Below are positions 2,936-60,180 of a DNA stretch of 64,000 bases, piece after piece. Below the pieces are notes generated by a model. It was not told the DNA's origin and searched no databases. It saw nothing but the letters and a program-made list of their open reading frames with translations. The first letter of the stretch is position 1. Every line of letters begins with the position of its first letter. The stretch lies in NCBI GenBank assembly GCA_001795615.1, contig MGKI01000014.1, positions 69,380-133,379 on the forward strand, read 5' to 3'. This DNA comes from Candidatus Yanofskybacteria bacterium RIFCSPLOWO2_01_FULL_42_49. Its GTDB lineage: Bacteria > Patescibacteriota > Minisyncoccia > 2-02-FULL-40-12 > GWA2-44-9. Position numbers and translations under genes: made by a program.

Positions 2936-4003
2936 CTACCTACTTTCTATAAAATCTTTGACAATTTTATAATCAGCAAAATACTTTGATTCCGGCCTAG
3001 TGACATAGTCGGGGGGGTTGAATTTATAGTAGACCTTTTTAAGAAAGGGCTTATTTGAAGCAAAATGTTTCAGTTTTTTAAGTAGATCTAGTTCTGACCA
3101 AACAGACCCTGGTTTCGCAGAAGAAACGGGCTCTTTCTGCCCAATAGACAACCATGTTTTTTCTATAGAATATTGCTGGGCAAGATAAACAATGAACATC
3201 CCCCTAACGGCGAATCGGCTTTCTTTTTCTGATATGCCTTTTTTCCGTATAATTTCCGAGAATCCTTCTTCGCAAATTCTCCACTGCTCGCCGATAGACG
3301 GATGCATCAGAAAATCTTCCGTGAGACTGTGATCAAAGAAAGGCAGGTCGCTTCTTTGCATAATATATCCTAATTTATCAAGCACCTTGGCTTTGCCAGA
3401 AATTATCAGCATATCAAACAATAAAAATTCGAACATGTCCCCGGCTATGGCAAAGTGCTTTGTAATATTGCGTATTTCTCTCTCTGTTTCGGTTCTTGTG
3501 ACCGCAAAACAAATAAAATATTGGTCGGACCAGAAATTTTTTACCCGGGCAAGCATATTCTCGTCTTCAACTGATCTGCCGAATGGCCGAGTTTGTTTCT
3601 CAATAATACCAAAAGGGTTGTTATAATCCTCGCGTCGAAATCGAATATTGATCTGCTTGCCGGCGCAAGTCCCGTAATCGGGATTTTTTTCCAAAAAATC
3701 CGCGCATTCAGAGATGGTCTTTGGAATAATAATATCATCGTCGCATGACCGCACACAGTATTTTTCCTCTATAAAAGGCATCAGATTATATGTATGATCT
3801 TTCCCCGGAGGAGCCCATTGGTAAATTATCTTAAAATTTTTAAATTTCTTTATGCCATTCTTAAGCTTCTCGGCATTCTCCGGATTACTACTGTCTAGAA
3901 TATAAATCGGGTGAGGACTATTCATCAATTCATAGAACTCAAACTGCCTCAACATAAAATCAGGGCGGTTCATGGTGGAAATTATGATGGCCACTTTAAT
4001 CAT
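2936..4003 (-). CDS. Divergent GT-A fold (GT2-like) glycosyltransferase, paralog 1 of 3
   Basis: N-terminus KVAIIISTMNRPDF...PIYILDSSNPEN and a CDDDIIIP (DxD-like) motif. It shares strong protein and DNA similarity with the adjacent gene 3996-5156. Start and stop overlap that neighbour by 8 bp. Confidence 0.55.
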   Translation of the reverse strand: MIKVAIIISTMNRPDFMLRQFEFYELMNSPHPIYILDSSNPENAEKLKNGIKKFKNFKIIYQWAPPGKDHTYNLMPFIEEKYCVRSCDDDIIIPKTISECADFLEKNPDYGTCAGKQINIRFRREDYNNPFGIIEKQTRPFGRSVEDENMLARVKNFWSDQYFICFAVTRTETEREIRNITKHFAIAGDMFEFLLFDMLIISGKAKVLDKLGYIMQRSDLPFFDHSLTEDFLMHPSIGEQWRICEEGFSEIIRKKGISEKESRFAVRGMFIVYLAQQYSIEKTWLSIGQKEPVSSAKPGSVWSELDLLKKLKHFASNKPFLKKVYYKFNPPDYVTRPESKYFADYKIVKDFIESR

Positions 4004-5156
4004 TATGGTTTTTTTCTAAAAAATCTTTAACTACTTTAAAATCGTTAAAATATTTTGACTCCGGTCTGGTCGCATCGTTGGTGGGATGATATTTATAATA
4101 TATACTTTCAAGAAGCGGCCAGCGCGAAACAAAATATCTTGCTTTTTTAAACAAACCTCGTCCCAGCCGGGCAGATGTTGGCCGAGTAGGGGTAGATTTA
4201 AAATGACCGATCGTTTGGGTAACAGGCGGCCAATCGGTCTCCAAAGTAAACTGGCGCGCAAGATAAAGAACAAATATCCATTTGGCAATTTTTAATCCTT
4301 CTTCCTCTGTATACCCTTTTTCTCTTATGATTTCAGCGAATTCCTTATGGGCTATCGCCCATTGGCTGCTCATATTTGGATCTGTCACGACATCAACCGT
4401 TAAACTATGGGTAAAACTGTAACGGTTACTACTCTTTTGCATGACATACCCTAATTTGTCAAGCACTTTAAATTTACCGGAAATTACCAATATAGAAGTT
4501 GATAAAAATTCCAAGATATGTTCAGTCAAAGAAAAATACTTAGTAACATTTCGAATTGATTTTTCCAACTCAACGCTTCTAACCACGAAACAAATAAAAG
4601 CTACGTTTCTGATGGAAACTTCGGAGTTGTTAATCTTTAGATCAAACCAAAACTCCTTAACCCTGGCCAGCATATTATCATCTTCAAGCGACCTGCCATG
4701 CGGCAGTGTCTGACGCTCAATGATGCCGTAGGGCTTATTATAATTTTTCTTCTGAAAACTAAAATTAATCTGCTTTCCGGCGCAAGTTGCATAATCGGGA
4801 TTTTTTTCCAAAAAATCCGCGCATTCAGACATTGTACTGGGAATAAGAAGGTCGTCATCTCCCATCTGAATGCAGTACTTTTCTTTTACTTGGGGCAAAA
4901 GTTGATACAAACAATCTTTCCCCGGCGGAGCCCATTGATATATTATACTTAACTTCTTAAATTTCTTTATCTCTTTTTTTAACTTATCCGCATTCTCTGG
5001 ATTACTACTATCCAAAACATAAATCGGATGGGGACTATTCATCAATTCATAGAACTCAAACTGCCTCAATATAAAATCGGGACGGTTCATTGTTGGAATT
5101 AGGATGGCTACTTTAGTCATTGTTGAATGGTATAATTTGGGTACGATAAAGTCCAT
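3996..5156 (-). CDS. Divergent GT-A fold (GT2-like) glycosyltransferase, paralog 2 (tandem duplicate of paralog 1)
   Basis: TKVAILIPTMNRPDFILRQFEFYELMNSPHPIYVLDSSNPEN is near-identical to paralog 1, and the C-terminus ...TRPESKYFNDFKVVKDF is also conserved. Probable start is MTKVAIL at ~5120. Long nucleotide stretches are shared with paralog 1, for example around 3895-3990 and 5040-5100. Confidence 0.55.
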   Translation of the reverse strand: MDFIVPKLYHSTMTKVAILIPTMNRPDFILRQFEFYELMNSPHPIYVLDSSNPENADKLKKEIKKFKKLSIIYQWAPPGKDCLYQLLPQVKEKYCIQMGDDDLLIPSTMSECADFLEKNPDYATCAGKQINFSFQKKNYNKPYGIIERQTLPHGRSLEDDNMLARVKEFWFDLKINNSEVSIRNVAFICFVVRSVELEKSIRNVTKYFSLTEHILEFLSTSILVISGKFKVLDKLGYVMQKSSNRYSFTHSLTVDVVTDPNMSSQWAIAHKEFAEIIREKGYTEEEGLKIAKWIFVLYLARQFTLETDWPPVTQTIGHFKSTPTRPTSARLGRGLFKKARYFVSRWPLLESIYYKYHPTNDATRPESKYFNDFKVVKDFLEKNHND

Positions 5157-5175
5157 AGTTCTTGTTTATAACACC

Positions 5176-5206
5176 CGTTGATACCTTCTGACACTTTTTG
5201 ATACTG
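5176..5206 (+). promoter_or_regulatory. Phased TGAYAC direct repeats (x3, 10 bp spacing), a promoter/operator-like motif upstream of the HemN-like gene
   Basis: TGATAC at 5179, TGACAC at 5189 and TGATAC at 5199, separated by T-rich spacers. The region can also be read as TTGATA-N16-GATACT (sigma70-like). A GAGGGG SD precedes ATG 5279. The same motif recurs at 6711-6741 and 18454-18493. Confidence 0.5.
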
Positions 5207-5278
5207 ATACAAAGTACTGGACAATATCTGTTAAATTTATTATGATTTTGTCAAAGCTTCTTAAAAACGAGGGGTAAA

Positions 5279-6664
5279 ATGCTCAAGAATGTGAACCCAA
5301 ATATATTACAAATAACCAATGCCTTTATGTATACCGAATACCCCCACAAGAGTTTTTGGTCAACTGATATGGGAAGTGAAGATTGTCATTCGGCGCTACT
5401 TGAATTATTAACCGATGAGCCCAATGTCCCTCTTTTGCTCTATGTCCATATATTGTACTGCACAAAACTTTGCTGGTTCTGTAATTGTCACATAGGAGAG
5501 ATCACCCAAAGCCAAGACAAGAGAAAAGATTATCTTGAGCTTCTTTATTCAGAAATACGATTGTTTAAGAAACTTTTTGACAAACACTCTTTGGCTCCGA
5601 ATTTTACAGAAATACATCTAGGAGGCGGATCTCCTACGGATCTTAGCATGAATGACTTTAGCCGACTGGTAGAAAATTTGAGTTCAATCGTAGATATCAA
5701 AAACTTGAGTGAATTTTCTATTGAAATAGATCCAAGACACAGCAGCAGAGAAATGCTTAGATTTTACCATAACCAAGGAATAAACCGAATTTCCTTTGGA
5801 ATTCAGGACTTTGACCCTGGTGTCCAAAAAGCCATTAACAGAATCCAGCCGATAGAGCTTGTAGAAAAACTTATGGGGCCGGAAATTAGTGATCTTTTCC
5901 CCAATGGTATAAATTTTGACATTATTTGCGGCCTGCCTCATCAAACAACCGAAACAATCAAGAGAACGATGGATGAATGTGTCCGTCTTTCGCCGGATAG
6001 GATTTGCTTCAATTATCTCCACCAGGCTCCCGAATTTTCAAAACATCAGCGACTTATGTCTGACGGTAAATTTGGAAGACCAGATCATCTTCCGGATTAT
6101 TATGAGAGGAAAAAACTCTTCACTATAGCCATGGAAACATTGATTAAAGCCGGCTATATCCGCACCGGATATGACCATTTTGCCAAACCAACTGATGCCG
6201 TGGCCAAGGCGATGGCAGAAGGTAAAATGCAATGGAATGCATTGGGAGTTACTGCGGGAAGATACACCAGTATTATTGGCGTGGGAATCCAGAGTTTTAG
6301 CACAATCGGCAATTATTATTTTCAGAATTTTTATGACTTGAAAAAATACCGGGAATCTTTGAGACAAGGACAATTTCCGATTTTCCGCGGCCATCGGCAA
6401 AACCAAGATGATCTTATCAGAAGAGATGTTATTCAAACTTTAAGAAGTTTCTTTTCTATAGATTTCAGATGTATTGACGAAAAATACGCTATTAATTTTG
6501 AGGAATATTTCGATCCAGAACTTGTGGCATTAGATGATTATGTAAGGGACGGCCTGATAGAAATAAAAGACAGGTCGATTATTATTACTGAGAAAGGGCA
6601 TCAATTCGCTAATACTGTCTGTTATGTATTTGATAAATATAAAAAAAATCGGCCCAAATTTTAA
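5279..6664 (+). CDS. HemN-like radical SAM enzyme (coproporphyrinogen III oxidase-like / class C radical SAM family)
   Basis: CTKLCWFCNC gives the HemN-type CxxxCxxCxC cluster, and HLGGGSPT matches the HemN GGGTP-like motif. Length is 461 aa and a terminator follows. Confidence 0.8.
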   Translation: MLKNVNPNILQITNAFMYTEYPHKSFWSTDMGSEDCHSALLELLTDEPNVPLLLYVHILYCTKLCWFCNCHIGEITQSQDKRKDYLELLYSEIRLFKKLFDKHSLAPNFTEIHLGGGSPTDLSMNDFSRLVENLSSIVDIKNLSEFSIEIDPRHSSREMLRFYHNQGINRISFGIQDFDPGVQKAINRIQPIELVEKLMGPEISDLFPNGINFDIICGLPHQTTETIKRTMDECVRLSPDRICFNYLHQAPEFSKHQRLMSDGKFGRPDHLPDYYERKKLFTIAMETLIKAGYIRTGYDHFAKPTDAVAKAMAEGKMQWNALGVTAGRYTSIIGVGIQSFSTIGNYYFQNFYDLKKYRESLRQGQFPIFRGHRQNQDDLIRRDVIQTLRSFFSIDFRCIDEKYAINFEEYFDPELVALDDYVRDGLIEIKDRSIIITEKGHQFANTVCYVFDKYKKNRPKF

Positions 6665-6682
6665 AATTTGGGCCTTTTTATT
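6651..6682 (+). terminator. Rho-independent terminator
   Basis: A perfect 12 bp palindromic stem GGCCCAAATTTT/AAAATTTGGGCC is followed by TTTTTATT. An A-tract lies upstream. Confidence 0.6.
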
Positions 6683-6710
6683 AAAACTCGCCTATTCGGT
6701 TTACAGCGTC

Positions 6711-6741
6711 CGTTGACACTTTCTGACACTTTTTGATACTC
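6711..6741 (+). promoter_or_regulatory. Phased TGAYAC direct repeats (x3), a promoter/operator-like motif with very short leader to ATG 6752
   Basis: TTGACAC at 6713, TGACAC at 6724 and TGATAC at 6734 at 10 bp spacing. A TAAAAT -10-like hexamer sits at 6743-6748, only 4 nt before the ATG, so the message is leaderless or nearly so. Confidence 0.5.
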
Positions 6742-6751
6742 TTAAAATATC

Positions 6752-7852
6752 ATGGGCAATGAACAAAATACAAAAGTAGCCATATCAATATCCACAATGA
6801 ACCGGCCGGATTTCTTGGCTCGTACTCTTAATTATTACGCAAAATGTAAATCCCCCCACCCGGTCTATTTGTCCGATTCAAGTAGCCCTGAAAATGTTAA
6901 GATAATTAAATCAATTCTGAAAAAACTAGATAATAAATTAGAGATACATTACAACTGGCTCCCGCCCGGGTTAGAACCCCACGAAAGAACGCTTTCTGTG
7001 GTAAAAGAAAAATACGCCCTCATTAACGGAGACGACGACTACGAAATACCGTCCACTTTAACTAAGTGCGCAGAATTTCTAGAGAATAACCCGGACTATA
7101 CTGCAGCTGGGGGTCATGGCATATCTTTTCGACTTAAAACCAGTGGTCCATACGGAGAAATAAAAAGGTTGGCCGACTATCCTTTTTATCCAATTGAAGC
7201 AAATACGGCCTCTCAAAGATTAAATGATTTTTTAAAAAAATGTTTCGTCGTCACATCCGGAGTAAATCGAGTTGAACATTTGAAGAAGATCTGGGTCATT
7301 CCGTTGCCCATAATAAACACCTGGAGCGAACTATTTCAGATAAGCCATTGCGCCGTGTCCGGTAAAATAAAATTGCTGGACTGCCTGGGCATAGTTCGGC
7401 ACATTCATGACCAGCAATATTACCTGACAAGTATGGTTGATTGGCTGACCGAAAAAGAATTCTATAATTATTATACGATATTCCAAGACCACCTTGCTAA
7501 AACAATCGCAAAAATTGACAATGTTTCCATAGACCAGGCAAAACAAACTGTTAAAAACGCCTTCTGGGAATACCTGCAAGTATATATGGCAAACGAAAAA
7601 AAAGGATTGGGGGCTAACAATGAGGAGTTAAAGACAAGCTCCCCTACTTTAAAAACGTTAAGAGTAACGCTCGGAAAGACTTTTCCTGTTTTAAAAACCG
7701 CTTACCGTCAATACTTAAGACCCTTTATCTCTGATAAACAACAGATGCATTATGACGCGATGAACTCACGCTCTCCATATTTTAAAGAGTTTCAGTTTGT
7801 AATGGATTCGTTCACGGGAAAGGATATAAAAACACATGACCAACAACAATAA
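6752..7852 (+). CDS. Divergent GT-A fold (GT2-like) glycosyltransferase, paralog 3
   Basis: TKVAISISTMNRPDFLARTL...PVYLSDSSSPEN and NGDDDYEIP share the architecture of the two paralogs at 2936-5156. It is the first gene of a long + strand operon. Confidence 0.55.
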   Translation: MGNEQNTKVAISISTMNRPDFLARTLNYYAKCKSPHPVYLSDSSSPENVKIIKSILKKLDNKLEIHYNWLPPGLEPHERTLSVVKEKYALINGDDDYEIPSTLTKCAEFLENNPDYTAAGGHGISFRLKTSGPYGEIKRLADYPFYPIEANTASQRLNDFLKKCFVVTSGVNRVEHLKKIWVIPLPIINTWSELFQISHCAVSGKIKLLDCLGIVRHIHDQQYYLTSMVDWLTEKEFYNYYTIFQDHLAKTIAKIDNVSIDQAKQTVKNAFWEYLQVYMANEKKGLGANNEELKTSSPTLKTLRVTLGKTFPVLKTAYRQYLRPFISDKQQMHYDAMNSRSPYFKEFQFVMDSFTGKDIKTHDQQQ

Positions 7853-8981
7853 ACAAAACAAAAGAAGCGTGGGATTTATCCCCTACGGCCGACAATCAAT
7901 TGATAATGATGATATTAAGGCCGTCGTTAATGTCTTGCGTTCGGACTGGTTGACCCAGGGTCCTGCGGTAAAACAATTTGAAGAGTCGCTGGCTAAATAT
8001 TGCAACGCCAAATATGCCGTAGCCGTTTCAAACGGCACGGCCGCTCTTCATTTAGCGTATTTAGCCGCCGATTTAAGCGCCGGTGATGAAGTTATCACAA
8101 CCCCAAATACATTTGCCGCAACTTCAAACATGCTCCTGGCGGTTGGAGCAAAACCTATTTTCTGTGATATACGGCTTGATAACTATAATCTTGACGAAAC
8201 AAAAATAGAAAAACTTGTCACCTCAAAAACAAAAGCCATAGTTCCGGTCCATTTTGGCGGCCATCCGTGCAATATGGACAAAATATTAAGTATGGCCAAA
8301 AAACACAGCCTGCTCGTAATTGAAGATGCTTGCCATGCTCTAGGCGCCTCATTTAAGAATGAGAAGGTTGGCGGCATCGGTGATATGTCGGTTTTCAGTT
8401 TTCATCCGGTCAAATCAATAACTACCGGTGAGGGTGGGGCAATTCTGACAAATAATCCTAAATTTTATAAAAAACTGGCCCATCTCCGAACACATGGCAT
8501 AACCAAAGATGAGGGTGGATTCAATGTTATGACCGCACTAGGTTATAACTACAGAATTACCGATATTCAGACGGCCTTGGGAATAAGTCAGTTGAAGAAA
8601 CTGGATAAATTTGTAAAAGCTAGGCAGAAGATTTTCGATATCTATAAAAAAGAGCTGGCCGGTGTAAAAGAGGTCTTCACTCCCTCTCTGGCCAAAAACT
8701 CCGTTTCTTCAAATCATCTTTTTGTAATAAGGACAAAAGACCCAACAAAAAGAAATCCTCTTGCTAATTTTCTTAAACAAAACGGCATAGGCGTAAATTT
8801 TCACTATCCAACCGTTTATTCCCACCCTTATTACAGAAAAAATGGCTATAAAGATGTAAAACTAGCCAACGCCGATCTATATCATAACTCCTGTATCACG
8901 CTTCCGCTTTATGTAACACTAGAAAAGAGCCAAATAAAATACATATGCAATAAAATAAAGGAATTCTTTAAAAAAGTTTAA
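7836..8981 (+). CDS. DegT/DnrJ/EryC1/StrS-family PLP-dependent sugar aminotransferase (PseC/LegC-like)
   Basis: Contains DWLTQGP and SNGTAALHLA, the Schiff-base lysine context FHPVKSITTGEGGAI, and YNYRITDIQTALG. The ORF overlaps the upstream gene. Confidence 0.85.
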   Translation: MTNNNKQNKRSVGFIPYGRQSIDNDDIKAVVNVLRSDWLTQGPAVKQFEESLAKYCNAKYAVAVSNGTAALHLAYLAADLSAGDEVITTPNTFAATSNMLLAVGAKPIFCDIRLDNYNLDETKIEKLVTSKTKAIVPVHFGGHPCNMDKILSMAKKHSLLVIEDACHALGASFKNEKVGGIGDMSVFSFHPVKSITTGEGGAILTNNPKFYKKLAHLRTHGITKDEGGFNVMTALGYNYRITDIQTALGISQLKKLDKFVKARQKIFDIYKKELAGVKEVFTPSLAKNSVSSNHLFVIRTKDPTKRNPLANFLKQNGIGVNFHYPTVYSHPYYRKNGYKDVKLANADLYHNSCITLPLYVTLEKSQIKYICNKIKEFFKKV

Positions 8982-9090
8982 AGTAGAGAATTAAAAGTTA
9001 AAAATCAAAGTTACAAGTTAAAATTTTTTATATATAACTTTGAATTTAAAACTTTAACTTTCAACTTTACACTTTTAACTTTTTACTTAT
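8982..9090. repeat. Palindromic AT-rich AAGTTAAAAG / AACTTTCAACTT repeat element filling the intergenic gap (copy A)
   Basis: The left arm (AAAAGTTAAAAATCAAAGTTACAAGTTAAAA) and the right arm (AACTTTGAATTTAAAACTTTAACTTTCAACTTTACACTTTTAACTTTTT) are near reverse complements. It shares the k-mers AAGTTAAAAG, ACTTTCAACT and CTTTTAACTT with copy B at 60874-61005. Confidence 0.7.
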
Positions 9091-10950
9091 ATGCAAACAT
9101 ACCTACTTTTTGAGATAGCCAATTCCTGCGCTGGGTCGAGCAAATTGATAGAAAAGTTGATAGATTCCCTACCGCAAGAGGATAATTTTGGCATTAACCC
9201 CCACACTCACTTTAGATATAGCTCAAAGAGCCAAAAACTAAAGCAAGTTAAAGTGAGTGTGGGGGTAAAATTTCAAGTTTATAAGTATAACGAAATTGCC
9301 TTATCCGACTATGAATGGTATCCGGTTTATAAGCAAACCTTCATAAATGCGCAGAATTGGAAAAAGATTTTTGCTCATGCAAAGAGCAAGGGCTTTGATA
9401 TCTGGATAGATGTTTTTGATCTATATAGCGTAGAAGTTATTAAAGATAATCTGCCGTTGGTAACCGGAATAAAACTCCAGTCTTCTGTTTTGAATAACCT
9501 CAAGGTATTGACTGCATTATCTGAAGTAATAAAAAACGGAAAGATTACGGTGATGTTAAATGTTGCCGGCAGAGACCTATCAAACATCAAAGAGTTGCTT
9601 AAAGATATAAGATCAAATTATTTTGACAATAAAATTATACTTCAAGCCGGTTTTCAGGGATATCCCACCGATAAAGAAGATCTAACCGTAAGTAAGGTCC
9701 GGATCTTAAAATCCGAATTTCCTAGTACAATAATATCTTATGCCGATCATGTTGACGGCAGTTCGCCTCTTGCGTTTGATATTCCGGTTTTTGCCGTATT
9801 GGCCGGCGCCGAGCACATAGAAAAGCATGTCTGCTTAGACAGGAAAAATACAAAATACGACTTCCAATCAGCAATTGAGCCCTATGAATGTGATCTATTA
9901 ATTTACAAGCTTAATGAAGCCGAAAAAATATTGGGAACAAAGTTTATACCAGACAAGGAAGCAAATTACCTCAAAACAACAATAGAGAAACCAATCGCTT
10001 CAGTTCATTTGAGAGCCGGCGATATTATAAATTTCAAAAACTTTGACTTTAGAAGAACCGGGCAGGAGGGGCTGACTGTAGCTGAAATAAAAGAATATAT
10101 GGAAAAAAGGTACGTACTGAAAAATGATATAAAGCCCGGGAAACCGATAACAAAAAATGATCTGAAAAAAGCCAGAGTAGGCGTTATTATCGCCTGCCGA
10201 ATGAAGTCAACCCGCTTAAAACATAAAGCCATATTACCCATTCAAGGACTGGCATCAATCGAAAGATGTATTTTGAACGCTAAAAAAATTAAATCGGCTG
10301 ATGAGATAATTTTGGCAACTTCAACCCTTGAAGAAGATCAAATTCTAAAAAAATACGCCTTAAAGCATAGGATCCGTTTTTTTGCCGGAGACCCCGAGGA
10401 TGTCATACTCCGCTATTTAGGCGTAGCTGAAAAATATAATCTTGATGTTACAATCCGAGTTACCGGTGATTGCCCGATAGTGTCGTATGAGATGGCCAAA
10501 TTTTTACTGAAAAGACATTTTGAAAAAGGTAATGATTATACTGGCCCCAAAGAATATTGTACCGGACAAAATAGCGAAATATACAGTGTAAATACATTAA
10601 AAAGAATTATAAAGTACTTGGGTGATGCCAGACATTCCGAATATATGACTTGGTATATGCTTACTAATAAAGACATCTTCCAAGTAGATATGGCCGAATT
10701 GCCCAAAGAATGGATCCGCGCTTACCGGCTAACCCTGGATGTCCAAGAAGACCTTGATATGTTTAATGCCTTATTTGAAAAATTGGGCAAAAAAGAAGTA
10801 AGCATTAAAAATGTATTCGGGGTAATTGACAAGAATCCCTGGATTCACGAACTTAACGATGCCATGGTTCTTAAATACAAATCGGATAAAAAATTAATAG
10901 ACATGCTGAATAAAGAAACGAGGATAAATCCGCCCAAAATTAAAAAATGA
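9091..10950 (+). CDS. Fusion protein: divergent NeuB-like (sialic/nonulosonic acid synthase-like TIM barrel + SAF domain) fused to an acylneuraminate cytidylyltransferase-like domain (SpsE-SpsF-like)
   Basis: N-terminal ~340 aa: the order of blocks matches NeuB (...GIKLQSSVLNNLKVL..., ...ISYADHVDGSSPLAFDIPVFAVLAGAEHIEKHVCLD...) and is followed by a SAF-like segment (VHLRAGDIINFKNFDF). C-terminal ~250 aa: ARVGVIIACRMKSTRLKHKAILPI...ILATS...IRVTGDCPIV is typical of CMP-sugar cytidylyltransferases (NeuA/PseF/SpsF). Confidence 0.6.
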   Translation: MQTYLLFEIANSCAGSSKLIEKLIDSLPQEDNFGINPHTHFRYSSKSQKLKQVKVSVGVKFQVYKYNEIALSDYEWYPVYKQTFINAQNWKKIFAHAKSKGFDIWIDVFDLYSVEVIKDNLPLVTGIKLQSSVLNNLKVLTALSEVIKNGKITVMLNVAGRDLSNIKELLKDIRSNYFDNKIILQAGFQGYPTDKEDLTVSKVRILKSEFPSTIISYADHVDGSSPLAFDIPVFAVLAGAEHIEKHVCLDRKNTKYDFQSAIEPYECDLLIYKLNEAEKILGTKFIPDKEANYLKTTIEKPIASVHLRAGDIINFKNFDFRRTGQEGLTVAEIKEYMEKRYVLKNDIKPGKPITKNDLKKARVGVIIACRMKSTRLKHKAILPIQGLASIERCILNAKKIKSADEIILATSTLEEDQILKKYALKHRIRFFAGDPEDVILRYLGVAEKYNLDVTIRVTGDCPIVSYEMAKFLLKRHFEKGNDYTGPKEYCTGQNSEIYSVNTLKRIIKYLGDARHSEYMTWYMLTNKDIFQVDMAELPKEWIRAYRLTLDVQEDLDMFNALFEKLGKKEVSIKNVFGVIDKNPWIHELNDAMVLKYKSDKKLIDMLNKETRINPPKIKK

Positions 10951-11516
10951 CAACAATATACATACTGGGCGGATTTTTAAAAAAAAATCGTGACGGAAGC
11001 TACGGCAGTGATCAATTAAGTTACATAAGGGTTCTGGCCGGATATTATCTTTACAAAAAATTATCTGGAAAAAACAAGATCGAACTGATTGTTTCTGGAA
11101 GCAGAGGAATTTATAGAGGAACTCCGGGCATTCCTCGAGTGGCAATAGTAATGAAACGGGAGCTGATAGAATTAGGCCTAAGCCCAAAAGAAATAAAAAT
11201 AGATAAAACGGACTTTACTTACAAGGAACTTATCTGGCTAAAAAAATATATAGCTAAAAAAACTGGGAAAGCATTTATTGTATCTAATGCCTACCACTTA
11301 CCCAGGATTAAAACGATGATCGATATTCTTCCAGAATTGAAGGAATTAAAAAATATAATTAAATTAGTCCCCGCGGATAAAATAGCAATTAAATTCGACG
11401 AAAAATTAAAACCCAGAATTAAAAAAGCCAATAAAAGTTCGGAAATGAAAAAAATAATTTCTTCTGAAAAAGAGGGTATACGCGCATTAAGATCAGGTAA
11501 CTATAAATTCAGGTGA
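10947..11516 (+). CDS. DUF218/YdcF(ElyC)-like domain protein
   Basis: ELIVSGSRG, TDFTYKEL and IVSNAYHLPR match the conserved DUF218 blocks. Length is 189 aa and the ORF overlaps both neighbours. Confidence 0.55.
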   Translation: MTTIYILGGFLKKNRDGSYGSDQLSYIRVLAGYYLYKKLSGKNKIELIVSGSRGIYRGTPGIPRVAIVMKRELIELGLSPKEIKIDKTDFTYKELIWLKKYIAKKTGKAFIVSNAYHLPRIKTMIDILPELKELKNIIKLVPADKIAIKFDEKLKPRIKKANKSSEMKKIISSEKEGIRALRSGNYKFR

Positions 11517-12583
11517 TGGAAAAACTCATAGTAAAAATAGGGAATGAGAAAAGGGAGATCGGCCCTAACCAGCCGGCTTTTATAATTGCCGAAATGTCGG
11601 CTAATCATGGACATAACATCAGGAAAGCGTACAAAATAATCGACGAAGTAGCCAAAGCTGGTGCAGATGCAATAAAACTTCAAACCTATACTCCGGACAC
11701 GATAACCATTGATTCAAATAAAAAATACTTCCAAGTAGAAATAAATGATGCTTGGAAAGGTCAGACTCTTTACAGCTTATATAGCAAAGCATACACACCT
11801 TGGGAGTGGATGCCAAAATTAAAAAAATACGCTGAAGACAAGGGACTGGTATTTTTTTCCTCTGTTTTTGACAATACTTCAGTTGATTTTCTAGAGACAA
11901 TTAACGTACCGATCTATAAGGTGGCATCCTTTGAAGTGGTCGATATTCCCCTTCTTAAAAGAATAGGCAGAACAAAAAAACCAGTTATTATATCCCGAGG
12001 TATGTCTACCCTCTCCGAACTGAAGTTAGCTCTTAAAACGTTAAAAAATGCCGGTACTTCTTCAATCGCAATCCTTCATTGTGTAAGTTCTTATCCGGCT
12101 AAATTCGACGAAATGAATATTTATACAATTACCGATCTAATAAAAAAATTCAATCATGTCGTCGGTCTTTCTGATCATTCTCCCGGAGCAACGGCCTCAA
12201 TAGCTGCCGTGAGCTTGGGAGCAAAAGTTATAGAAAAACACATAATTTTGTCCCGTTCCGAAGGCGGACCGGACGCTGCTTTTTCTCTTGAGCCAAATGA
12301 ATTCAAAAAACTTGTTGACTCTGTCCGAAATACTGAGGCTGCGTTGGGTAAGCCTTTTTACGGCTCAGGAATAAAAGAGTCGGAAAATATTGTTTTTAGA
12401 AAGTCACTTTTTGTCGTTGAAAATATTAAAAAGGGTCAAAAATTTACAGCTCAAAATATCCGTTCAATCCGCCCCGGACATGGTCTTGAACCGAAATATT
12501 ATGAGCGGGTTATTGGAAAACTAGCCAAAGTTGACCTAGAAAAAGGCACACCGCTTAAATTAATCCACATAGAAAATGTCTAA
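11513..12583 (+). CDS. N-acetylneuraminate/pseudaminate/legionaminate synthase family (NeuB/PseI/LegI) with C-terminal SAF domain
   Basis: The N-terminus GPNQPAFIIAEMSANHGHNIRKAYKIIDEVAKAGADAIKLQTY is canonical NeuB. It also contains GLSDHSPG, LGAKVIEKH and GPDAAFSLEP, and ends with a SAF-like tail. Confidence 0.85.
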   Translation: MMEKLIVKIGNEKREIGPNQPAFIIAEMSANHGHNIRKAYKIIDEVAKAGADAIKLQTYTPDTITIDSNKKYFQVEINDAWKGQTLYSLYSKAYTPWEWMPKLKKYAEDKGLVFFSSVFDNTSVDFLETINVPIYKVASFEVVDIPLLKRIGRTKKPVIISRGMSTLSELKLALKTLKNAGTSSIAILHCVSSYPAKFDEMNIYTITDLIKKFNHVVGLSDHSPGATASIAAVSLGAKVIEKHIILSRSEGGPDAAFSLEPNEFKKLVDSVRNTEAALGKPFYGSGIKESENIVFRKSLFVVENIKKGQKFTAQNIRSIRPGHGLEPKYYERVIGKLAKVDLEKGTPLKLIHIENV

Positions 12584-13190
12584 AATTGGGGTAATCAACT
12601 ATGGCGTTGGCAATCTGCAATCCGTGAAAAACTCACTGGATTTTTTAGGCATTCCAAACGAAATTGTCGACAAGTCGCAGGAGATAAGTAGTTTTGACAA
12701 AATAATTCTGCCGGGAGTAGGCGCTTTTGGAGCCGCAATAAAAAAATTAAATGACCTTGGTTTTACTGAAGAAATAAGAAAATTCTCCAGCCAAAATAAG
12801 CCAATCCTCGGTATCTGTCTAGGTATGCAGCTTCTATTTGATGAGAGTTACGAACACGGCCACCACCAAGGTTTAGGATTAATAAAGGGAAGGGTTCTGC
12901 CTTTCAATGAAAAAATAAAAAACCTGCCTCTGCCTCAAATCGGTTGGAATAACATAACTAAAGTAGGCGTATCCCCTATTTTAAAAAATGTCGAGGATAA
13001 TTCTTGTTTTTATTTTGTCCATAGTTTTTATTGCGAACCAGAGAAAAAAACTGCCACAATAGCTAGTTCTGATTATGGCATAAAATTTGCGGCAATTATT
13101 AACGAAAATAATATCTTCGGCTGCCAGTTCCACCCGGAAAAAAGCCAGTCGGCCGGACTTCATATATTAAAGAATTTCTCTAGCCTATGA
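12576..13190 (+). CDS. HisH-like glutamine amidotransferase subunit (glycan-associated, WbuY/PseA-partner type)
   Basis: Class I GATase motifs: ILPGVGAFG, GICLGMQLL and the FHPEKS triad. It sits next to HisF-like and PP-loop amidotransferase genes rather than his genes. Confidence 0.8.
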   Translation: MSKIGVINYGVGNLQSVKNSLDFLGIPNEIVDKSQEISSFDKIILPGVGAFGAAIKKLNDLGFTEEIRKFSSQNKPILGICLGMQLLFDESYEHGHHQGLGLIKGRVLPFNEKIKNLPLPQIGWNNITKVGVSPILKNVEDNSCFYFVHSFYCEPEKKTATIASSDYGIKFAAIINENNIFGCQFHPEKSQSAGLHILKNFSSL

Positions 13191-13972
13191 TTAAACGACG
13201 CTTAATACCAGTACTTTATATTAAGAATGGCCTTATCGTAAGAAGCGAGGGATTTTCTTATCACCACAATATAGGCAACGTGGTAAAAGAAGCTGCTCGC
13301 TATAATAGCTGGGATGTTGACGAGTTAATTTATATAGACATAAGTCGAGAAAAACACTACGATCTCCGCCGTGACGATTATAATGTAAACGCCTACAACT
13401 CAATCGGATCCATCATTAAAGAAATATCCAAGGTTTGCTTTATGCCCTTAACCTTTGGAGGGGGCATACGAACTATTGATGATGTCAGTTTCAGGATACA
13501 AAATGGGGCTGATAAAATAACCTTAAACACCGGCGCACTTGAAAATCCAAAATTAATAACTCAAGCAGCTGAGAGATATGGTTCACAAGCCGTGGTGATA
13601 TCTATTGATTATAAAATTATTGAAAACCAACCAATCGTATTCACTGATTTTGGCCAAAAAAATACGAGCAAATCTGTTTACAACTGGGTCAAAGAATGCG
13701 AAAATCTAGGTGCTGGAGAAATATTTATTAACTCGATTGACCGAGATGGAAAAGCCAACGGCTACGATATTGAAACAATCAATAAAACCGTCGCATCTAC
13801 TAAATTACCCACTATCGCTTGCGGCGGAGCTGGAAATCTTGAAGATTTTGTTGAACTGGCGAAACAAACAAATGTTTCAGCCGTAGCCGCTGGAAACATA
13901 TTTCACTTTACCGAGTTAAGTTATCCAAGATCAAAAATATTGCTTAAAAAAAATAATTTAAATTTCCGTTAA
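13187..13972 (+). CDS. HisF-like cyclase subunit (glycan-associated, WbuZ-type)
   Basis: (beta/alpha)8 HisF-like blocks: RLIPVLYIKNG, LTFGGGIRT and IACGGAGNLEDF. Its position fits the acetamidino-sugar trio. Confidence 0.8.
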   Translation: MIKRRLIPVLYIKNGLIVRSEGFSYHHNIGNVVKEAARYNSWDVDELIYIDISREKHYDLRRDDYNVNAYNSIGSIIKEISKVCFMPLTFGGGIRTIDDVSFRIQNGADKITLNTGALENPKLITQAAERYGSQAVVISIDYKIIENQPIVFTDFGQKNTSKSVYNWVKECENLGAGEIFINSIDRDGKANGYDIETINKTVASTKLPTIACGGAGNLEDFVELAKQTNVSAVAAGNIFHFTELSYPRSKILLKKNNLNFR

Positions 13973-13973
13973 C

Positions 13974-15173
13974 ATGACTAAGATAACATACTGCACAAAG
14001 TGCGTTTATCCCTCAAGTTCTGCTGTTCCCCTTGCCTTTGATGAAAAAGGGTTGTGTTCCGGCTGTAGAACCAGCGGAGAAAAAGCACAGATAGATTGGG
14101 ACGATCGCAAGAAAAAATTTGAGGATATTATTGAAGAATACCGCAATAAAGACGGCACTGGTTATGATCTAATAATTCCAGTTTCCGGAGGCAAGGACAG
14201 TTACTTTCAAGTCCATCTTATGAAAAAAATTTATGGACTTAATCCGCTTCTGGTAACCTACAACGGCAACAACTATACTCCGACCGGAATGGAAAATCTC
14301 ATTAACATGAGAAATGTTTTTGGAGTTGATCATATTTTCTTCACGGCCAACATTGATGTGCTGAAAACATTAAATCGCCTCGGTGTCCAAATTTTGGGTG
14401 ATATGCAGTGGCACTACGCTTCGGGCATCTACACATACCCAATAAGGGTAGCCGTAGAGACCAAGACGCCCTTGATGCTCTGGGGCGAACACGGGCATAT
14501 GGATCTTGGCGGAATGCACTCATATAATGACTTGGTGGAATTTACATACAGATATCGGCACGAACATGTAATTCGAGGATACGAGTGGACTGATTTTTTA
14601 AAAAGAGCGCCAGAATTCGGCGAAAAACTAACTAAACAACAACTAATCCCTTGGATGTATCCTTCAGATGAGGAGATAGCTAGTGTTGGTGTTCGGGGTA
14701 TTTATACCGCTAATTATTTTAAATGGGATGCCAATATCCACGGGCCAATGGTAATGGAAAAATACGGTTTTAAGGTACCCGATGAACCTTTTGAAAGGAC
14801 TTATAGAAAGATGTCAAACTTAGACGATATGCATGAGAATGGCGTACATGATTACCTAAAGTTTATAAAATTTGGCTATGGTCGAGCAACTGACCATGTT
14901 TGCAAAGATATCCGATCGGGCATTATGACCCGTGAACGAGGAATTGAATTAGTTAAAAACATGGACCACCTCAAACCAAAAGATACCCAGCGATGGTTAA
15001 AATATGTCGGTTGGACAGAAGAAAAATTTGATAAAATTGCCGATACTTTCCGCGACCAGCGAGTTTGGTGGATCAAAGACGGCCAGTGGTGGAAAGACAA
15101 TCTTTGGAGGGAACCATCTGCTTACGGAAAGGTCCACTTGGACCCGAAACAACAGAAAAAATACTTATTGTAA
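13974..15173 (+). CDS. N-acetyl sugar amidotransferase (PP-loop ATP pyrophosphatase; PseA/WbpG/WbuX-like)
   Basis: An N-terminal Cys-rich segment CTKCVYPSS...CSGCR is followed by the PP-loop SGGKDS. Length is 399 aa and it follows the HisH/HisF homologs. Confidence 0.8.
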   Translation: MTKITYCTKCVYPSSSAVPLAFDEKGLCSGCRTSGEKAQIDWDDRKKKFEDIIEEYRNKDGTGYDLIIPVSGGKDSYFQVHLMKKIYGLNPLLVTYNGNNYTPTGMENLINMRNVFGVDHIFFTANIDVLKTLNRLGVQILGDMQWHYASGIYTYPIRVAVETKTPLMLWGEHGHMDLGGMHSYNDLVEFTYRYRHEHVIRGYEWTDFLKRAPEFGEKLTKQQLIPWMYPSDEEIASVGVRGIYTANYFKWDANIHGPMVMEKYGFKVPDEPFERTYRKMSNLDDMHENGVHDYLKFIKFGYGRATDHVCKDIRSGIMTRERGIELVKNMDHLKPKDTQRWLKYVGWTEEKFDKIADTFRDQRVWWIKDGQWWKDNLWREPSAYGKVHLDPKQQKKYLL

Positions 15174-18453: not shown

Positions 18454-18493
18454 GTTGATATCTGTTGACACCTTTTGACATCTTTTGATACTC
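18454..18493 (+). promoter_or_regulatory. Phased TGAYAY direct repeats (x4, exact 10 bp spacing), promoter/operator-like
   Basis: TGATAT at 18456, TGACAC at 18466, TGACAT at 18476 and TGATAC at 18486, with CTTTT spacers. An AGAGG SD lies ~10 nt before ATG 18521. Confidence 0.5.
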
Positions 18494-18520
18494 TTTATGT
18501 AGGTCAGAGGTCAAAACTTT

Positions 18521-19414
18521 ATGCTAATAAGTACCGTCCAAAAACTCAAAGCCATTCCAAGTTATCTTTACAGGAATTATGCCGCTCCTAAATTTTACAG
18601 TATCCGAGACAGAATGATCCTGTCAAGAAATTTGGAACTTAAAAATAAATATGTCGGCCGGCGTTGTTTTATTCTTGGCGCCGGACCCTCTATAGCTGAC
18701 ACTGATCTTTCGCGGCTGAGACAAGAGCATGTTTTTGTAGTTAACGAGTTTGAGAAGAATAAACAGCATCGCTCTTTAACGCCGACATTTCACATCATAT
18801 CGGAATCAAATTATTTTAACGAAAACGGACCGGAGTATTGGCGCAACCGCTTTAAGGAAAAGAATAAATACATATCTGCCGACACAACTATTATAACCAA
18901 CTTGGCAGCAATACCATTCATTCAGAAACATGACTTGTTTAAAGAGCATAGGATATACTATACAGGCACACAGGGAATTTTCAGCAATAATCTGCCTTTT
19001 AGTATAGATCTTAATCACTATGTTCCCAATCCCAAAAATTCAATTTTAATGTGCATGATTGCGGCCACTTGGATGGGTTTTAATAAAATTTATCTTCTTG
19101 GCTGCGAACACAGTTTCCTGGCTCAACCTTTGGGTAAAAATAAATCTCTCGGGTTCGGTCATAGCTATGAAGATGAAACATCTAGCCTTGATAATGCCGA
19201 CAATGCAACCCTGAAGAAATATATTGATGCCAAAGAACTGAATTTTACCTACGAGATGAGCATCGCCAACATATTGCAATTATTTAAAAATTACCGCTTA
19301 TTTTACTCTAAAGCGCGCAGAATCCATCCAGATTTACAAATATTCAACGCCACGCCTAATAGTTTTCTGGATGTTTTTCCTATGATAAATTTTGAAGATA
19401 TAATGGGACTATGA
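18521..19414 (+). CDS. DUF115 / motility-accessory-factor (Maf)-like protein, candidate nonulosonic acid transferase
   Basis: FILGAGPSIADTDL...VFVVNEF and a C-terminal ...IYLLGCEH... resemble the MptE-like/Maf family. It is the first gene downstream of the shared promoter motif. Confidence 0.4.
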   Translation: MLISTVQKLKAIPSYLYRNYAAPKFYSIRDRMILSRNLELKNKYVGRRCFILGAGPSIADTDLSRLRQEHVFVVNEFEKNKQHRSLTPTFHIISESNYFNENGPEYWRNRFKEKNKYISADTTIITNLAAIPFIQKHDLFKEHRIYYTGTQGIFSNNLPFSIDLNHYVPNPKNSILMCMIAATWMGFNKIYLLGCEHSFLAQPLGKNKSLGFGHSYEDETSSLDNADNATLKKYIDAKELNFTYEMSIANILQLFKNYRLFYSKARRIHPDLQIFNATPNSFLDVFPMINFEDIMGL

Positions 19415-20136
19415 AACATATCCGATATAACAATATAGAGGTTGTATATAAAGAAAAGCTACATGGCGGAGGAATTAGATTCGGACAGCAATTTATTCCC
19501 ATAGTAAAGGAAAGGTTCGGCCATGTTGGCCACATATTTGAATTTTGTGCTGGACCTGGATTCATCGGATTTTCACTGCTTGCAAATAATCTCTGCGATA
19601 AATTAACTGTGGCCGATATAAACCCGGAAGCTGTTAAGGTGTTAAGTGAGACGGTCAAAAAAAATGGCCTAGAGTCAAAGGTTGCCGTCTATCTTTCCGA
19701 CTGTCTGGATAGCATACCTGAGACAGAAAAGTGGGATCTGGTCGTCAGTAACCCACCTCATGTTTTTTGCGCAAATGAAGATGAGCACAAAAAAAATATA
19801 ATTTTATTTGACCCTAATTTTAACATACATAAACGATTCTATAGGGATATCAAAAAATTTTTAAAGCCAACCGGTTCAGTGCTGCTTCAGGAACACACAG
19901 AATCAACAAACATAGACGATTTCAAAAGTATGATAGAAGAGAACGGGCTTAAAATAGTTGATGTTTTTACATATACTTCCCCAGTTAAAGTTATCGGCCC
20001 TAAAAACACTCTCGGTTTTAACTTTCCAACTCTGCGCAAAATTTTTAATCCGTTTAAAGTTTATAGGGCCGCAAAAAGACGGCTCTGGCCGAATAAGCCC
20101 AGGAACTATTATTTTATCCACGCTAAAATAGCATGA
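19411..20136 (+). CDS. Class I SAM-dependent methyltransferase
   Basis: FEFCAGPGFIG (motif I-like), DINPEA and VVSNPPH (NPPY-like motif IV). Confidence 0.7.
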   Translation: MKHIRYNNIEVVYKEKLHGGGIRFGQQFIPIVKERFGHVGHIFEFCAGPGFIGFSLLANNLCDKLTVADINPEAVKVLSETVKKNGLESKVAVYLSDCLDSIPETEKWDLVVSNPPHVFCANEDEHKKNIILFDPNFNIHKRFYRDIKKFLKPTGSVLLQEHTESTNIDDFKSMIEENGLKIVDVFTYTSPVKVIGPKNTLGFNFPTLRKIFNPFKVYRAAKRRLWPNKPRNYYFIHAKIA

Positions 20137-21983: not shown

Positions 21984-22818
21984 AACGACTAAGAACCTCT
22001 TGCGCAAACTGCCCATTTTCCTTCCAGCTAAAAAACTGCATTATTTAGCGCGCAGATTCATATTTAAAATTTATAACGCTCTATTCCCAACCGCAACGAT
22101 ACTTCTTTACCATCGGATATCAGATTCAAAAAATGACCCTCATCGGCTTTGCGTATCGCCGGAAAATTTCCGCGAACAGATAAAATTTTTAAAAGAAAAT
22201 TTCCGCGTTATACCCCTGGTCCAGCTTGTCAGGGAAGTTCGTTCTAAAAAATTAAAAAGCAAGACCGTGGTCATTACCTTTGATGACGGCTATTCTGATA
22301 ATCTCCACAATGCCTTACCGGTTCTCCAAGAACTCGACATCCCAGCCACCATATTTTTTACGGCCGGTTATGTTGGCTCGAATAAGCTCTTTTATTGGGA
22401 CTTATATGCACAAACAGGCGAAAATACGCCCCCAGAAGACCAAGGTAGGCCATTGACCCTAGATGAGGCTAAAACCCTCTCTACGGCCCGTATAATCGAA
22501 ATTGGAGGCCATACTATAAACCACCCCAAACTAGCTAAAATACCCCCAAATGAGCAGTTTGTGGAAATATTCAAAGGGAAAATAATCGTTGAAGAAATGC
22601 TTGATATTCCCCTTTTAAGTTTTGCCTATCCGTTTGGAGGCAGGGACAGCTTTGATAAAAACACAATTGAACTGGTCAAAAAAGCCGGATTCCAATACGC
22701 TTGCTCCAACACACACAAAAGAGTGACAAATAATTCTAATATATATGCCTTACCCCGTTATGTGGTAAGAAATTGGAATTTAGAAGAATTTAAGAAAGAA
22801 TTCACTAAATTTATTTAA
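21922..22818 (+). CDS. Polysaccharide deacetylase (NodB-homology domain, CE4)
   Basis: TFDDGY, HTINHP and a later ...YPFGG... block. Likely start is MTKLIHK at ~21964, which overlaps the upstream stop. Confidence 0.8.
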   Translation: MTLSSSAAIFSCRTMTKLIHKTTKNLLRKLPIFLPAKKLHYLARRFIFKIYNALFPTATILLYHRISDSKNDPHRLCVSPENFREQIKFLKENFRVIPLVQLVREVRSKKLKSKTVVITFDDGYSDNLHNALPVLQELDIPATIFFTAGYVGSNKLFYWDLYAQTGENTPPEDQGRPLTLDEAKTLSTARIIEIGGHTINHPKLAKIPPNEQFVEIFKGKIIVEEMLDIPLLSFAYPFGGRDSFDKNTIELVKKAGFQYACSNTHKRVTNNSNIYALPRYVVRNWNLEEFKKEFTKFI

Positions 22819-22830
22819 TATTTACTCGGG

Positions 22831-55407: not shown

Positions 55408-55462
55408 AAAATCCGCCCCACAAGAGCGGATTTTCTATCTTTATGATTGTCCTGTTTCTTAA

Positions 55463-57724: not shown

Positions 57725-57774
57725 TCAAAATATCATACCACTATTTTCCCTTAATTCCTAGAAAATAAATAATA

Positions 57775-59589: not shown

Positions 59590-59592
59590 CTT

Positions 59593-60180
59593 TTAAAAAC
59601 TGATTCTTACTTCAGCTTGGCCGGAACAGTTGACTTCTTTTACTTTTAAGTCCCCCCCCATAAACTGGCCATAAGTAACCGAAGCAGTAAGCAAATATGT
59701 CTTTGAAACTGGTTTTTCCGGCAAACGAATAGTCAAATTTTCATATTGTCCGTCAGGGACGATTAGATTGGCAAATAGATTCGGCCCGATGATCAAACTG
59801 TCATTCGGGATGATACGCCAATTTATTAAACGGCCTTGACTGTCTACATTCTGCCAGGATATTTTAGTATTAGAGGAATATAATCTGGGTTCAGAGAATT
59901 CAGCTTCGCCACTTACTTGGCAAGTGGCCGGTGACTTTATGCCATTAGGCCCAATGAAGGGTTCCCCTGTCGTAGCTGTTGGTTTTATTGTCATAGCAGG
60001 TGTCAAGGTAGGGATAGGCGCTGAAGAAGAACTTTGAACAACGTTTGGTCCGGTTGTGGGTTCAGCTGTTTGTTCAATATACTCCGCCGGTTTCGCAAAG
60101 TAAACAACCGAAATAATTCCTAGCACAAGGACCGCTACACTCCCCCACAACATAAAATTTCTCTTATTTTCCATCTCCAA
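59593..60180 (-). CDS. Signal-anchored secreted protein with Ser/Thr/Pro-rich linker
   Basis: N-terminal TM (LWGSVAVLVLGIISVVYF), a linker SSSSAPIPTLTPAMTIKPTATTGEP, then a ~130 aa beta-rich domain with 2 Cys. It lies 3 nt from the paralog A GT-C gene. Confidence 0.45.
   Translation of the reverse strand: MEMENKRNFMLWGSVAVLVLGIISVVYFAKPAEYIEQTAEPTTGPNVVQSSSSAPIPTLTPAMTIKPTATTGEPFIGPNGIKSPATCQVSGEAEFSEPRLYSSNTKISWQNVDSQGRLINWRIIPNDSLIIGPNLFANLIVPDGQYENLTIRLPEKPVSKTYLLTASVTYGQFMGGDLKVKEVNCSGQAEVRISF

Follow-up and report, generated by a model that had tools for sequence, protein, structure and literature searches.

In this study, we analyzed a 64,000-nt stretch of metagenomic DNA from the uncultivated, ultra-small Candidatus Yanofskybacteria bacterium RIFCSPLOWO2_01_FULL_42_49 (contig MGKI01000014.1, positions 69,380 to 133,379 of the forward strand; hereafter the window), and found three sites at which TGAYAY hexamers are repeated on the + strand at exactly 10-bp intervals. 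These phased arrays are real and non-random. Our analysis suggests that each block is probably a sigma70-type promoter combined with an operator for an autoregulated BldC-like factor of the HTH_17 (helix-turn-helix) family, likely a repressor, which would co-control a nonulosonate operon and a Maf-like operon. The initial annotation of this DNA had proposed a shared promoter doubling as a same-face factor-binding array that co-regulates these two operons; the conservation of the array across genomes and the shift of its register relative to the promoter, both described below, point the same way.

The near-identical phased blocks reported at the three sites were borne out by direct reading, a pattern search and shuffled controls. 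Site 1 (5169-5204) reads TAACAC-CCGT-TGATAC-CTTC-TGACAC-TTTT-TGATAC, site 2 (6714-6739) reads TGACAC-TTTC-TGACAC-TTTT-TGATAC, and site 3 (18456-18491) reads TGATAT-CTGT-TGACAC-CTTT-TGACAT-CTTT-TGATAC. The copy numbers given earlier stand for site 3 (four hexamers, starting at 18456, 18466, 18476 and 18486) and site 2 (three, at 6714-6719, 6724-6729 and 6734-6739), but not for site 1, which also has a fourth copy, the imperfect TAACAC at its beginning. A further TGATAC abuts site 1 at 5205-5210. This first array (5169-5210 in all) lies in the divergent intergenic region between a paralog gene (3996-5156, - strand), from whose start codon it begins 13 nt away, and a HemN-like radical SAM gene (5279-6664, + strand). 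Array 2 is located upstream of the ATG at 6752, which its last hexamer precedes by 12 nt. Array 3 is located upstream of the ATG at 18521; 13 nt separate its beginning from 18443, where a divergent epimerase gene has its annotated start.

The three-hexamer pattern has 4 matches in the window against 0.00 expected, with none in any of 100 dinucleotide-preserving shuffles, and all 7 matches to the two-hexamer pattern (0.07 expected from shuffles) fall within sites 1-3. When up to three mismatches were allowed, the window gained only the imperfect fourth copy at site 1 and one weak match. The arrays are direct repeats without dyad symmetry, and the inverted copy GTGTCA is absent from them.

The window is 100% identical to part of the ENA contig ERZ27254842:k141_1244754 (141,381 bp), on which window position 1 is record position 69,426, and the locus is also present in NCBI assembly GCA_001794105.1 (record MGJE01000048.1). 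We read ~102 kb of this contig for the array counts, that is, all of it outside record positions 1-31,131 and 51,405-59,665. At up to two mismatches to the three-hexamer pattern, arrays were found in only four places: the three window sites and the gene of a small regulator-like protein, P0084. The array was absent from more than 20 other operon-leading regions of the window. Because of this scarcity, the array is not a generic promoter, an option already considered in the initial annotation.

Conservation of the array upstream of a small HTH_17 gene

A scan of one genome per species with the pattern TGAYAYNTNNTGAYAYYTTTTGAYAY returned at least 119 stretches. Among the matches listed, which do not include the window's own genome, there is strong enrichment for Patescibacteria, also called the Candidate Phyla Radiation (CPR), and about 30 CPR hits lie 9-190 nt upstream of the gene for a conserved ~81-aa protein. 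Outside the CPR, many hits belong to unrelated repeat families or are simple (TGATATTTTT)n tracts. The conserved protein follows the pattern MPEIKPNEVYTT..LLKIS.STIKRLLKKGLIRANKVGGQYRILGKE.L....KINKW. Its homologue in this genome, P0084 (81 aa), is encoded at 41,159-41,404 of the contig record, on the same strand and ~28 kb before the start of the window; the gene was not found in the window itself by tblastn. The array TTGACACCTTTTGACACTTATTGATAC stands 10 nt before the P0084 ATG, gggaTTGACACCTTTTGACACTTATTGATACgcttagttttATG precedes the gene, and an ABC exporter follows it within a cluster that carries heptose-type and other sugar-nucleotide genes. The regulator gene has also been annotated as the 90-aa P0091 (L141 10001-10273, equal to record 41,132-41,404), with a TTG start inside the operator. 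The conserved 81-aa form starts at an ATG 27 nt downstream of this TTG, and similar N-terminal over-extensions occur in loci L046 and L072.

For an unbiased test, 80 metagenomic loci were picked by protein homology only, 75 of which have at least 60 nt upstream of the HTH gene. We found a perfect array within 200 nt upstream of that gene in 52 of the 75 loci, an array with one mismatch in 14, and two or more mismatches in 9; thus, 88% (66/75) carry an array with at most one mismatch. Conversely, 54 of the 56 perfect arrays in the 625 kb of these loci precede the HTH gene, and 20 shuffles gave 0. The two exceptional arrays precede an ABC-exporter-like gene and an unknown gene that bears an array in another genome too.

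The position matrix of the 66 sites reads T-TGACAC-C-T-t-T-TGACAC-y-T-T-T-TGATAC-n-a-T. Positions left unconstrained by the search are 73-86% conserved (T at -1 in 86%, spacers 76-85% C or T), and information drops to ~0 bits just outside the array. Across at least 60 diverged genomes, conservation is as high in the middle hexamer and the T-rich spacers as in the outer hexamers. This is in line with the earlier view that the spacers are conserved beyond what sigma70 needs, since both features are kept in dozens of diverged genomes.

In the matrix, the first hexamer together with the T before it reads TTGACA. Start codons most often stand 9-10 nt behind the array (27/66 sites, a sharp mode), which places the ATG 6-7 nt after the -10 element, the geometry of a leaderless mRNA. 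Every short-distance site (32/32, at most 12 nt to the ATG) ends in the hexamer TGATAC, which also serves as a TG-n-TAC-n-n-T extended -10, and the T at the -7 position of this element is 82% conserved family-wide. The 15 sites that end in TGACAC are without exception long-distance sites; in those read by eye, a separate TATAAT follows 5-7 nt downstream, often 6-7 nt before the ATG. In this second class, the second hexamer is the -35 element, with the intact array displaced upstream by about one repeat. Since the array keeps a fixed register while it shifts relative to the -10 element, and its middle unit lies in the promoter spacer, sigma70 contacts by themselves do not account for it; this is our chief reason for suggesting that the repeats have a reader separate from the polymerase. 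Window sites 2 and 3 belong to the first, TGATAC-ending class.

All three window sites score 9-10/12 as sigma70 promoters, and the TTGACA-N16-GATACT reading of the initial annotation holds at each of them in the form TTGACA/TTGATA-N16-GATACT. At site 2, the predicted core promoter (6713-6742, + strand) combines TTGACA at 6713-6718 with either GATACT at 6735-6740 (N16) or TG at 6734-6735 plus TACTCT at 6737-6742 (N18). The ATG at 6752 follows TACTCT by 9 nt, giving a predicted 5' untranslated region of ~2-4 nt; the near-leaderless transcript already proposed here would fit the family mode. At site 3 (18456-18494, + strand), TTGACA at 18465-18470 is paired with GATACT at 18487-18492 (N16) or with TG plus TACTCT at 18489-18494 (N18). 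The predicted leader is ~20 nt, and GAGG precedes the ATG at 18521. A further TTGACA-N16-GATACT at 18599-18626 (- strand) was set aside as a chance match; it is intragenic, inside the Maf-like gene, and the middle hexamer is absent.

Site 1 is a special case. Its TTGATA (5178-5183)-N16-GATACT reading scores 9/12, and the alternative reading with TACTGA as -10 is poor because position -7 is an A. A sigma70-like promoter that scores better than the array's own, TGGACA-N17-TATGAT at 5218-5246 (+ strand; 10/12, by consensus match only), starts 14 nt downstream of the array and lies between it and the HemN-like start codon. If this promoter is used, array 1 would be located roughly 49-84 nt upstream of the start site. 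Given the poor -10 in the array and the better promoter downstream, array 1 may be an upstream operator, or may act on the divergent gene, rather than serve as the promoter.

Proposed operator and competing explanations

The conserved protein matches Pfam PF12728 (HTH_17) above the curated cut-off, and its MerR hits are weak. The sole names carried by its 875 homologues are 'hypothetical', 'helix-turn-helix domain-containing' and 'excisionase family DNA binding protein'. The AlphaFold model built from 49 homologues (predicted local distance difference test score, pLDDT, 86) consists of strand, helix, helix and a hairpin wing (beta-H-H-beta-beta), followed by a long helix at residues 48-80 that is lacking in BldC and that the invariant Ser56-Pro57 may kink. 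There is no effector domain. The top Foldseek match in the PDB is BldC on DNA (6ama_B, probability 1.00, root-mean-square deviation 1.9 A over 51 columns), with further matches to RacA, the MerR-type NmlR, TorI, GlnR and the mycobacteriophage (Pukovnik) Xis.

In the proposed mechanism, the operator would consist of three or four head-to-tail 10-bp units (consensus TTGACAC-Y-T-T) fused to a sigma70-type core promoter. The cognate factor would be the ~81-aa winged-helix HTH_17 protein, P0084 on the same contig, with its BldC/Xis-like fold and basic C-terminal helix; one protomer would sit on each 10-bp repeat, head to tail on the same face of the helix. From the -35 through the spacer to the extended -10, the promoter would be covered by such a filament, which would compete with RNA polymerase. 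The predicted outcome is that the factor represses its own gene and, with it, the nonulosonate operon (6752-15173), the Maf-like operon (18521-24027) and the HemN-like gene. When the factor is absent, the sites would act as strong promoters, with leaderless or near-leaderless transcripts at 6752 and at most regulator genes. We infer the binding of the protein to the array, the stoichiometry and the transcription start sites alike from the sequence features above. A possible covariation of the protein with its operator is consistent with direct reading: in the wing-variant subfamily GKQYR..GHE (vs GGQYR..GKE elsewhere; L171, L172, L182, L198, L201, L205 and L208), the operator spacers, such as CTAA, CCAA and CTAT, are A-richer (0.30 vs 0.09), which would lend weak support to recognition of the operator by this protein.

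Several points weigh against this proposal. The link between protein and operator is one of guilt by association, and the covariation of wing and spacer rests on 7 loci and may reflect phylogeny alone. Since the outer hexamers double as promoter elements, promoter selection could account for some of the conservation, and the resemblance of sites 1 and 2 is partly due to a recent duplication. On the protein side, the Foldseek E-values are weak (0.03), which is to be expected of a domain of 50 residues, and neither phmmer nor a 49-sequence profile detected sequence similarity to BldC or any solved protein among all PDB sequences. The C-terminal helix could be a symmetric dimeriser, which would suit direct repeats less well. 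Finally, the view of the regulon comes from ~102 kb of this genome and from the matches listed in the genome scan.

The position of the operator and the near-consensus promoter elements make us lean modestly towards repression over activation. Activation by the same factor on the same array, through MerR-like remodelling of the spacer or recruitment of polymerase, would have its best case at site 1, whose array stands ahead of TGGACA-N17-TATGAT; as a general account of the arrays we regard it as unlikely, though worth weighing. The protein belongs to the MerR-like winged-helix-turn-helix fold group, and the short-distance promoter class (class A) can be read with an 18-nt spacer. However, the operator is made of direct repeats rather than a palindrome, and its promoter spacers are 16-18 nt against 19-20 nt in MerR-type promoters; a MerR-type palindromic operator within a 19-20 bp spacer was not found at any of the three window sites. 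Furthermore, polymerase should need no help at hexamers that come so close to the -35 and extended -10 consensus, and a factor on the -35 would compete with sigma region 4.

A rather improbable reading is that the block, be it TTGACA-N16-GATACT or an extended -10, is nothing more than a strong housekeeping promoter that was copied from operon to operon and has no dedicated reader. This would explain why the three sites match sigma70 elements at 9-10 of 12 positions, why the outer hexamers are the -35 and the extended -10, and why sites 1 and 2 share a duplicated 62-nt block. It leaves aside the middle hexamer and spacers, which lie inside the promoter spacer and are conserved like the outer hexamers, and the second promoter class, which keeps an intact array about one repeat upstream of a separate TATAAT. 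Nor does it fit the array-free operon-leading regions of the window, or the near-exclusive placement of perfect arrays in front of one gene family.

A reader encoded elsewhere, such as a response regulator of the OmpR/PhoB type, with the HTH_17 gene as just one member of the regulon, is quite improbable. OmpR/PhoB-family sites typically consist of direct repeats that overlap the -35 and are phased at 10-11 bp (also PMC5859096), and the cognate reader of the array has so far been assigned by inference. A response regulator was the example offered by the initial annotation, and for this we found no support: no Response_reg or Trans_reg_C domain and no histidine kinase was present in 40 window proteins (a Pfam scan with open reading frames 48735-49796 and 49831-51018 outside it), in the annotated window ends and contig flanks, or in the genes beside and after the HTH gene. 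In addition, the hexamer is a perfect -35 consensus, unlike in pho-box promoters, and the HTH_17 gene, with which the array travels, is the one DNA-binding gene that co-occurs with it in 88% of the sampled loci. LexA was also considered as a reader of the array and is unlikely, as the array tracks the HTH_17 gene and glycan genes.

That the HTH_17 protein is a recombination directionality factor (excisionase), with the repeats serving site-specific inversion or excision for phase variation of glycan loci, is hardly credible: the domain is of excisionase type and some sources name the homologues accordingly, Xis proteins bind phased direct repeats (PMC5859096), TorI and Pukovnik Xis are among the Foldseek matches, and an inverted 44-nt similarity (5074-5117/6770-6813) flanks segment 5118-6769, but this similarity is explained by the N-terminal coding regions of paralogous genes, no integrase or recombinase stands beside the HTH gene in the annotated loci or among the next genes of 74 loci, and the arrays always aim at a start codon from promoter distance. 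An invertible promoter between these inverted repeats was likewise rejected, as they are paralogous coding sequence and six of six independent assemblies of the locus agree in orientation.

Operons behind the arrays and the predicted regulon

The operon behind array 2 (6752-15173, + strand) encodes, in order, paralog 3, a DegT aminotransferase, a NeuB-cytidylyltransferase fusion, a DUF218 protein, a NeuB/SAF synthase, a HisH-like glutamine amidotransferase (GATase), a HisF-like protein and an unknown 399-aa protein. Judged by these genes, it is a predicted modified nonulosonate pathway. A bidirectional intrinsic-terminator-like hairpin at 6651-6674, with a perfect 10-bp stem and T runs on both strands, ends the HemN-like gene before array 2, which argues that array 2 opens a new transcription unit. 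Within the operon, the fusion at 9091-10950 is a 619-aa protein that joins a NeuB-like and a CMP-sugar cytidylyltransferase part, and a second, canonical NeuB/SAF synthase follows two genes on (11513-12583). The operon behind array 3 (18521-24027, + strand) encodes an MptE/Maf-like protein, a methyltransferase, a carbamoyltransferase, a polysaccharide deacetylase and a GT4 glycosyltransferase. Maf-like orthologues in two other Yanofskybacteria (L045 and L085) have the array 15 nt from the ATG.

Among the matches listed in the genome scan, other CPR genes preceded by an array encode DegT, cytidylyltransferase, GT4, HisF-like, epimerase and HAD hydrolase proteins. In two CPR genomes (L123, from 3290, and L019), the array precedes a pyruvate-kinase-like/ATP-sulfurylase/APS-kinase fusion (905 aa in L123), which hints that sulfate activation, and hence possibly sulfated glycans, may belong to the regulon.

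The HTH_17 gene usually opens an operon for glycan synthesis or export. In 74 loci, the next gene after it encodes an ABC exporter (ABC_membrane; 21), an NDP-sugar epimerase/dehydratase (14), an ABC-2 permease (12), a flippase (Polysacc_synt_3; 6), a cytidylyltransferase-like protein (3), a GHMP kinase (2) or a dTDP-sugar isomerase (2), with a PEP mutase, a deacetylase, a PD-(D/E)XK nuclease and others as single cases. An ABC exporter is thus the partner in only about one third of the loci, and the broader rule is that a glycan operon follows. Since glycan operons stand behind the regulator gene and further glycan genes bear arrays of their own, the predicted regulon is surface-glycan production.

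We Pfam-scanned the 40 window open reading frames mentioned above, and precomputed annotations covered the ends of the window and the contig flanks. For every Pfam-assigned protein of the window, surface-glycan biosynthesis is a fitting role. These proteins include a DegT aminotransferase, two NeuB-type synthases (one of them the cytidylyltransferase fusion) and a HisH/HisF-like amidotransferase pair. Among them are also a Maf/MptE-like protein, a carbamoyltransferase, a deacetylase, methyltransferases and several GT2 and GT4 transferases, and the window also contains B12-radical SAM enzymes and PMT_2, Wzy_C and TPR membrane proteins.

On a larger scale, ~100 kb of contiguous contig DNA (records 31-51 kb and 60-141 kb; the window together with L141, L225 and L138) is devoted nearly entirely to glycan synthesis, modification and export. 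It encodes five B12-binding radical SAM enzymes, two of which are in the window, many GT2/GT4 transferases, and large PMT_2, Wzy_C and TPR proteins. As a typical CPR genome totals ~1 Mb, this stretch is a very large share.

The arrays at sites 1 and 2 also share a recent history. A direct duplication of 62 nt (5164-5225 vs 6699-6760, 77% identity) reaches past the array on both sides, and accounts for part of the likeness between the two sites. In this block, CTGGACAAT of the site 1 copy aligns with ATGGGCAAT of the site 2 copy, which is the start of gene 6752. Because the block passes the limits of the array and carries a vestige of this gene start, site 1 is probably a copied promoter-operator block with a decayed start codon of gene 6752. 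Copying of such blocks offers a simple route to regulon expansion. The genes around the two sites include three that encode paralogous proteins (2936-4003, - strand; 3996-5156, - strand; 6752-7852, + strand) with 55% and 31-33% identity. No Pfam match was found for any of the three, and the GT-A label of the initial annotation was not confirmed.

Other features were seen in the course of the genome scan. In L033, L070, L105 and L117 (Omnitrophica, Ignavibacteriales and other metagenome-assembled genomes, MAGs), a different conserved element opens with (TGATACCTTT)x3 followed by ...CTTCTGTCAGTTCTCGTGTCAG...CTGCCAAA..CCTGACAC..GGGTATCAAA; it contains inverted TGATACC/GGTATCA, and does not stand beside an HTH_17 gene. 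Other lineage-specific TGAYAC-type 10-bp repeats with conserved flanks occur in L042, L059 and L119 (Desulfuromonadales and Deltaproteobacteria MAGs) and in Coleofasciculus (L022, L037, L049, L065, L082, L107 and L115), and may be unrelated repeat-binding systems or dispersed repeats. In a Wolfebacteria locus (L012 881-1580), a gene for a 23S rRNA-intervening-sequence protein (PF05635) lies between the array and the regulator gene.

Comparison with known systems

To our knowledge, next to nothing is known of how CPR/Patescibacteria regulate their genes. These bacteria have tiny genomes, few regulators and a life attached to host cells, and because of this attachment, surface glycans are probably central to their lifestyle. 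Our analysis offers a candidate regulator-operator pair, for which the consensus is defined and both the regulon and a leaderless extended -10 promoter architecture are predicted, as well as well-defined native promoter/operator parts for CPR genetics. Members of the HTH_17 family occur in MAGs of Saccharibacteria, a group in which some cultivated members are genetically tractable (PMC10633639), so that the hypothesis is open to experiment. Our broadest proposal, to which we give an even chance, is that one BldC-like filament former would be, from Saccharibacteria to Parcubacteria, a master switch of CPR surface-glycan synthesis and export; the 10-bp repeat it reads would be built from the -35 and extended -10 consensus, so that it would vie with polymerase for the same letters on leaderless promoters, and its regulon would have grown in Yanofskybacteria by copying of the promoter-operator block before the nonulosonate and Maf-like operons.

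A small winged helix of the BldC/Xis-like kind reading direct repeats is a known type of regulator. What appears to be new is the HTH_17 family described here, together with its predicted operator, the fusion of that operator with leaderless promoter elements and the tie to glycan loci across CPR lineages; a literature search that included Patescibacteria papers found no description of this protein family, motif or regulon.

Small regulators or elements at the 5' end of surface-polysaccharide loci are known from UpxY/UpxZ in Bacteroides and RfaH/ops in enterobacteria, where they coordinate long glycan operons. Those systems work by NusG-like action on elongation and antitermination and involve no repeat operator in the core promoter, and their fold is unrelated to HTH_17.

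OmpR/PhoB boxes, such as pho boxes, share with the CPR arrays direct repeats phased at 10-11 bp on one face that overlap the -35 of several co-regulated operons. In contrast to these boxes, the CPR array has no linked response regulator and its -35 is consensus rather than replaced. The CPR array also runs through the spacer into the -10, suggesting occlusion over recruitment.

Xis-type factors (lambda Xis, Pukovnik Xis, TorI, RdfS) bind cooperatively to phased direct repeats and can form filaments, and RdfS binds its own promoter (PMC11963761). The CPR protein shares their HTH_17/winged-helix fold. It differs in that its gene is a conserved first gene of glycan operons with arrays at promoter distance from start codons, and no att site or mobile element, nor an integrase, was linked to the HTH gene in the annotated loci or among the next genes of the 74 loci.

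The closest parallel is BldC of Streptomyces, a protein with a structure near that of Xis whose oligomers line up head to tail on two to four direct repeats (PMC5859096). Like BldC, which gives the best structural match, the CPR protein is a small stand-alone winged helix, and its predicted DNA side consists of three to four short direct repeats about one helical turn apart in promoters, where BldC targets have two to four. Unlike BldC, to which it has no detectable sequence similarity, it carries an extra basic C-terminal helix of ~25-33 residues. The CPR repeat is TTGACACYTT (10 bp) instead of AATTNNNNC (9 bp) in BldC targets, and the CPR operator is fused to the -35 and extended -10 of predicted leaderless promoters. 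The predicted CPR regulon comprises surface-glycan genes, whereas that of BldC comprises developmental genes, and binding by the CPR protein is a prediction. If true, BldC-type head-to-tail binding would extend to a new protein family and a new phylum.

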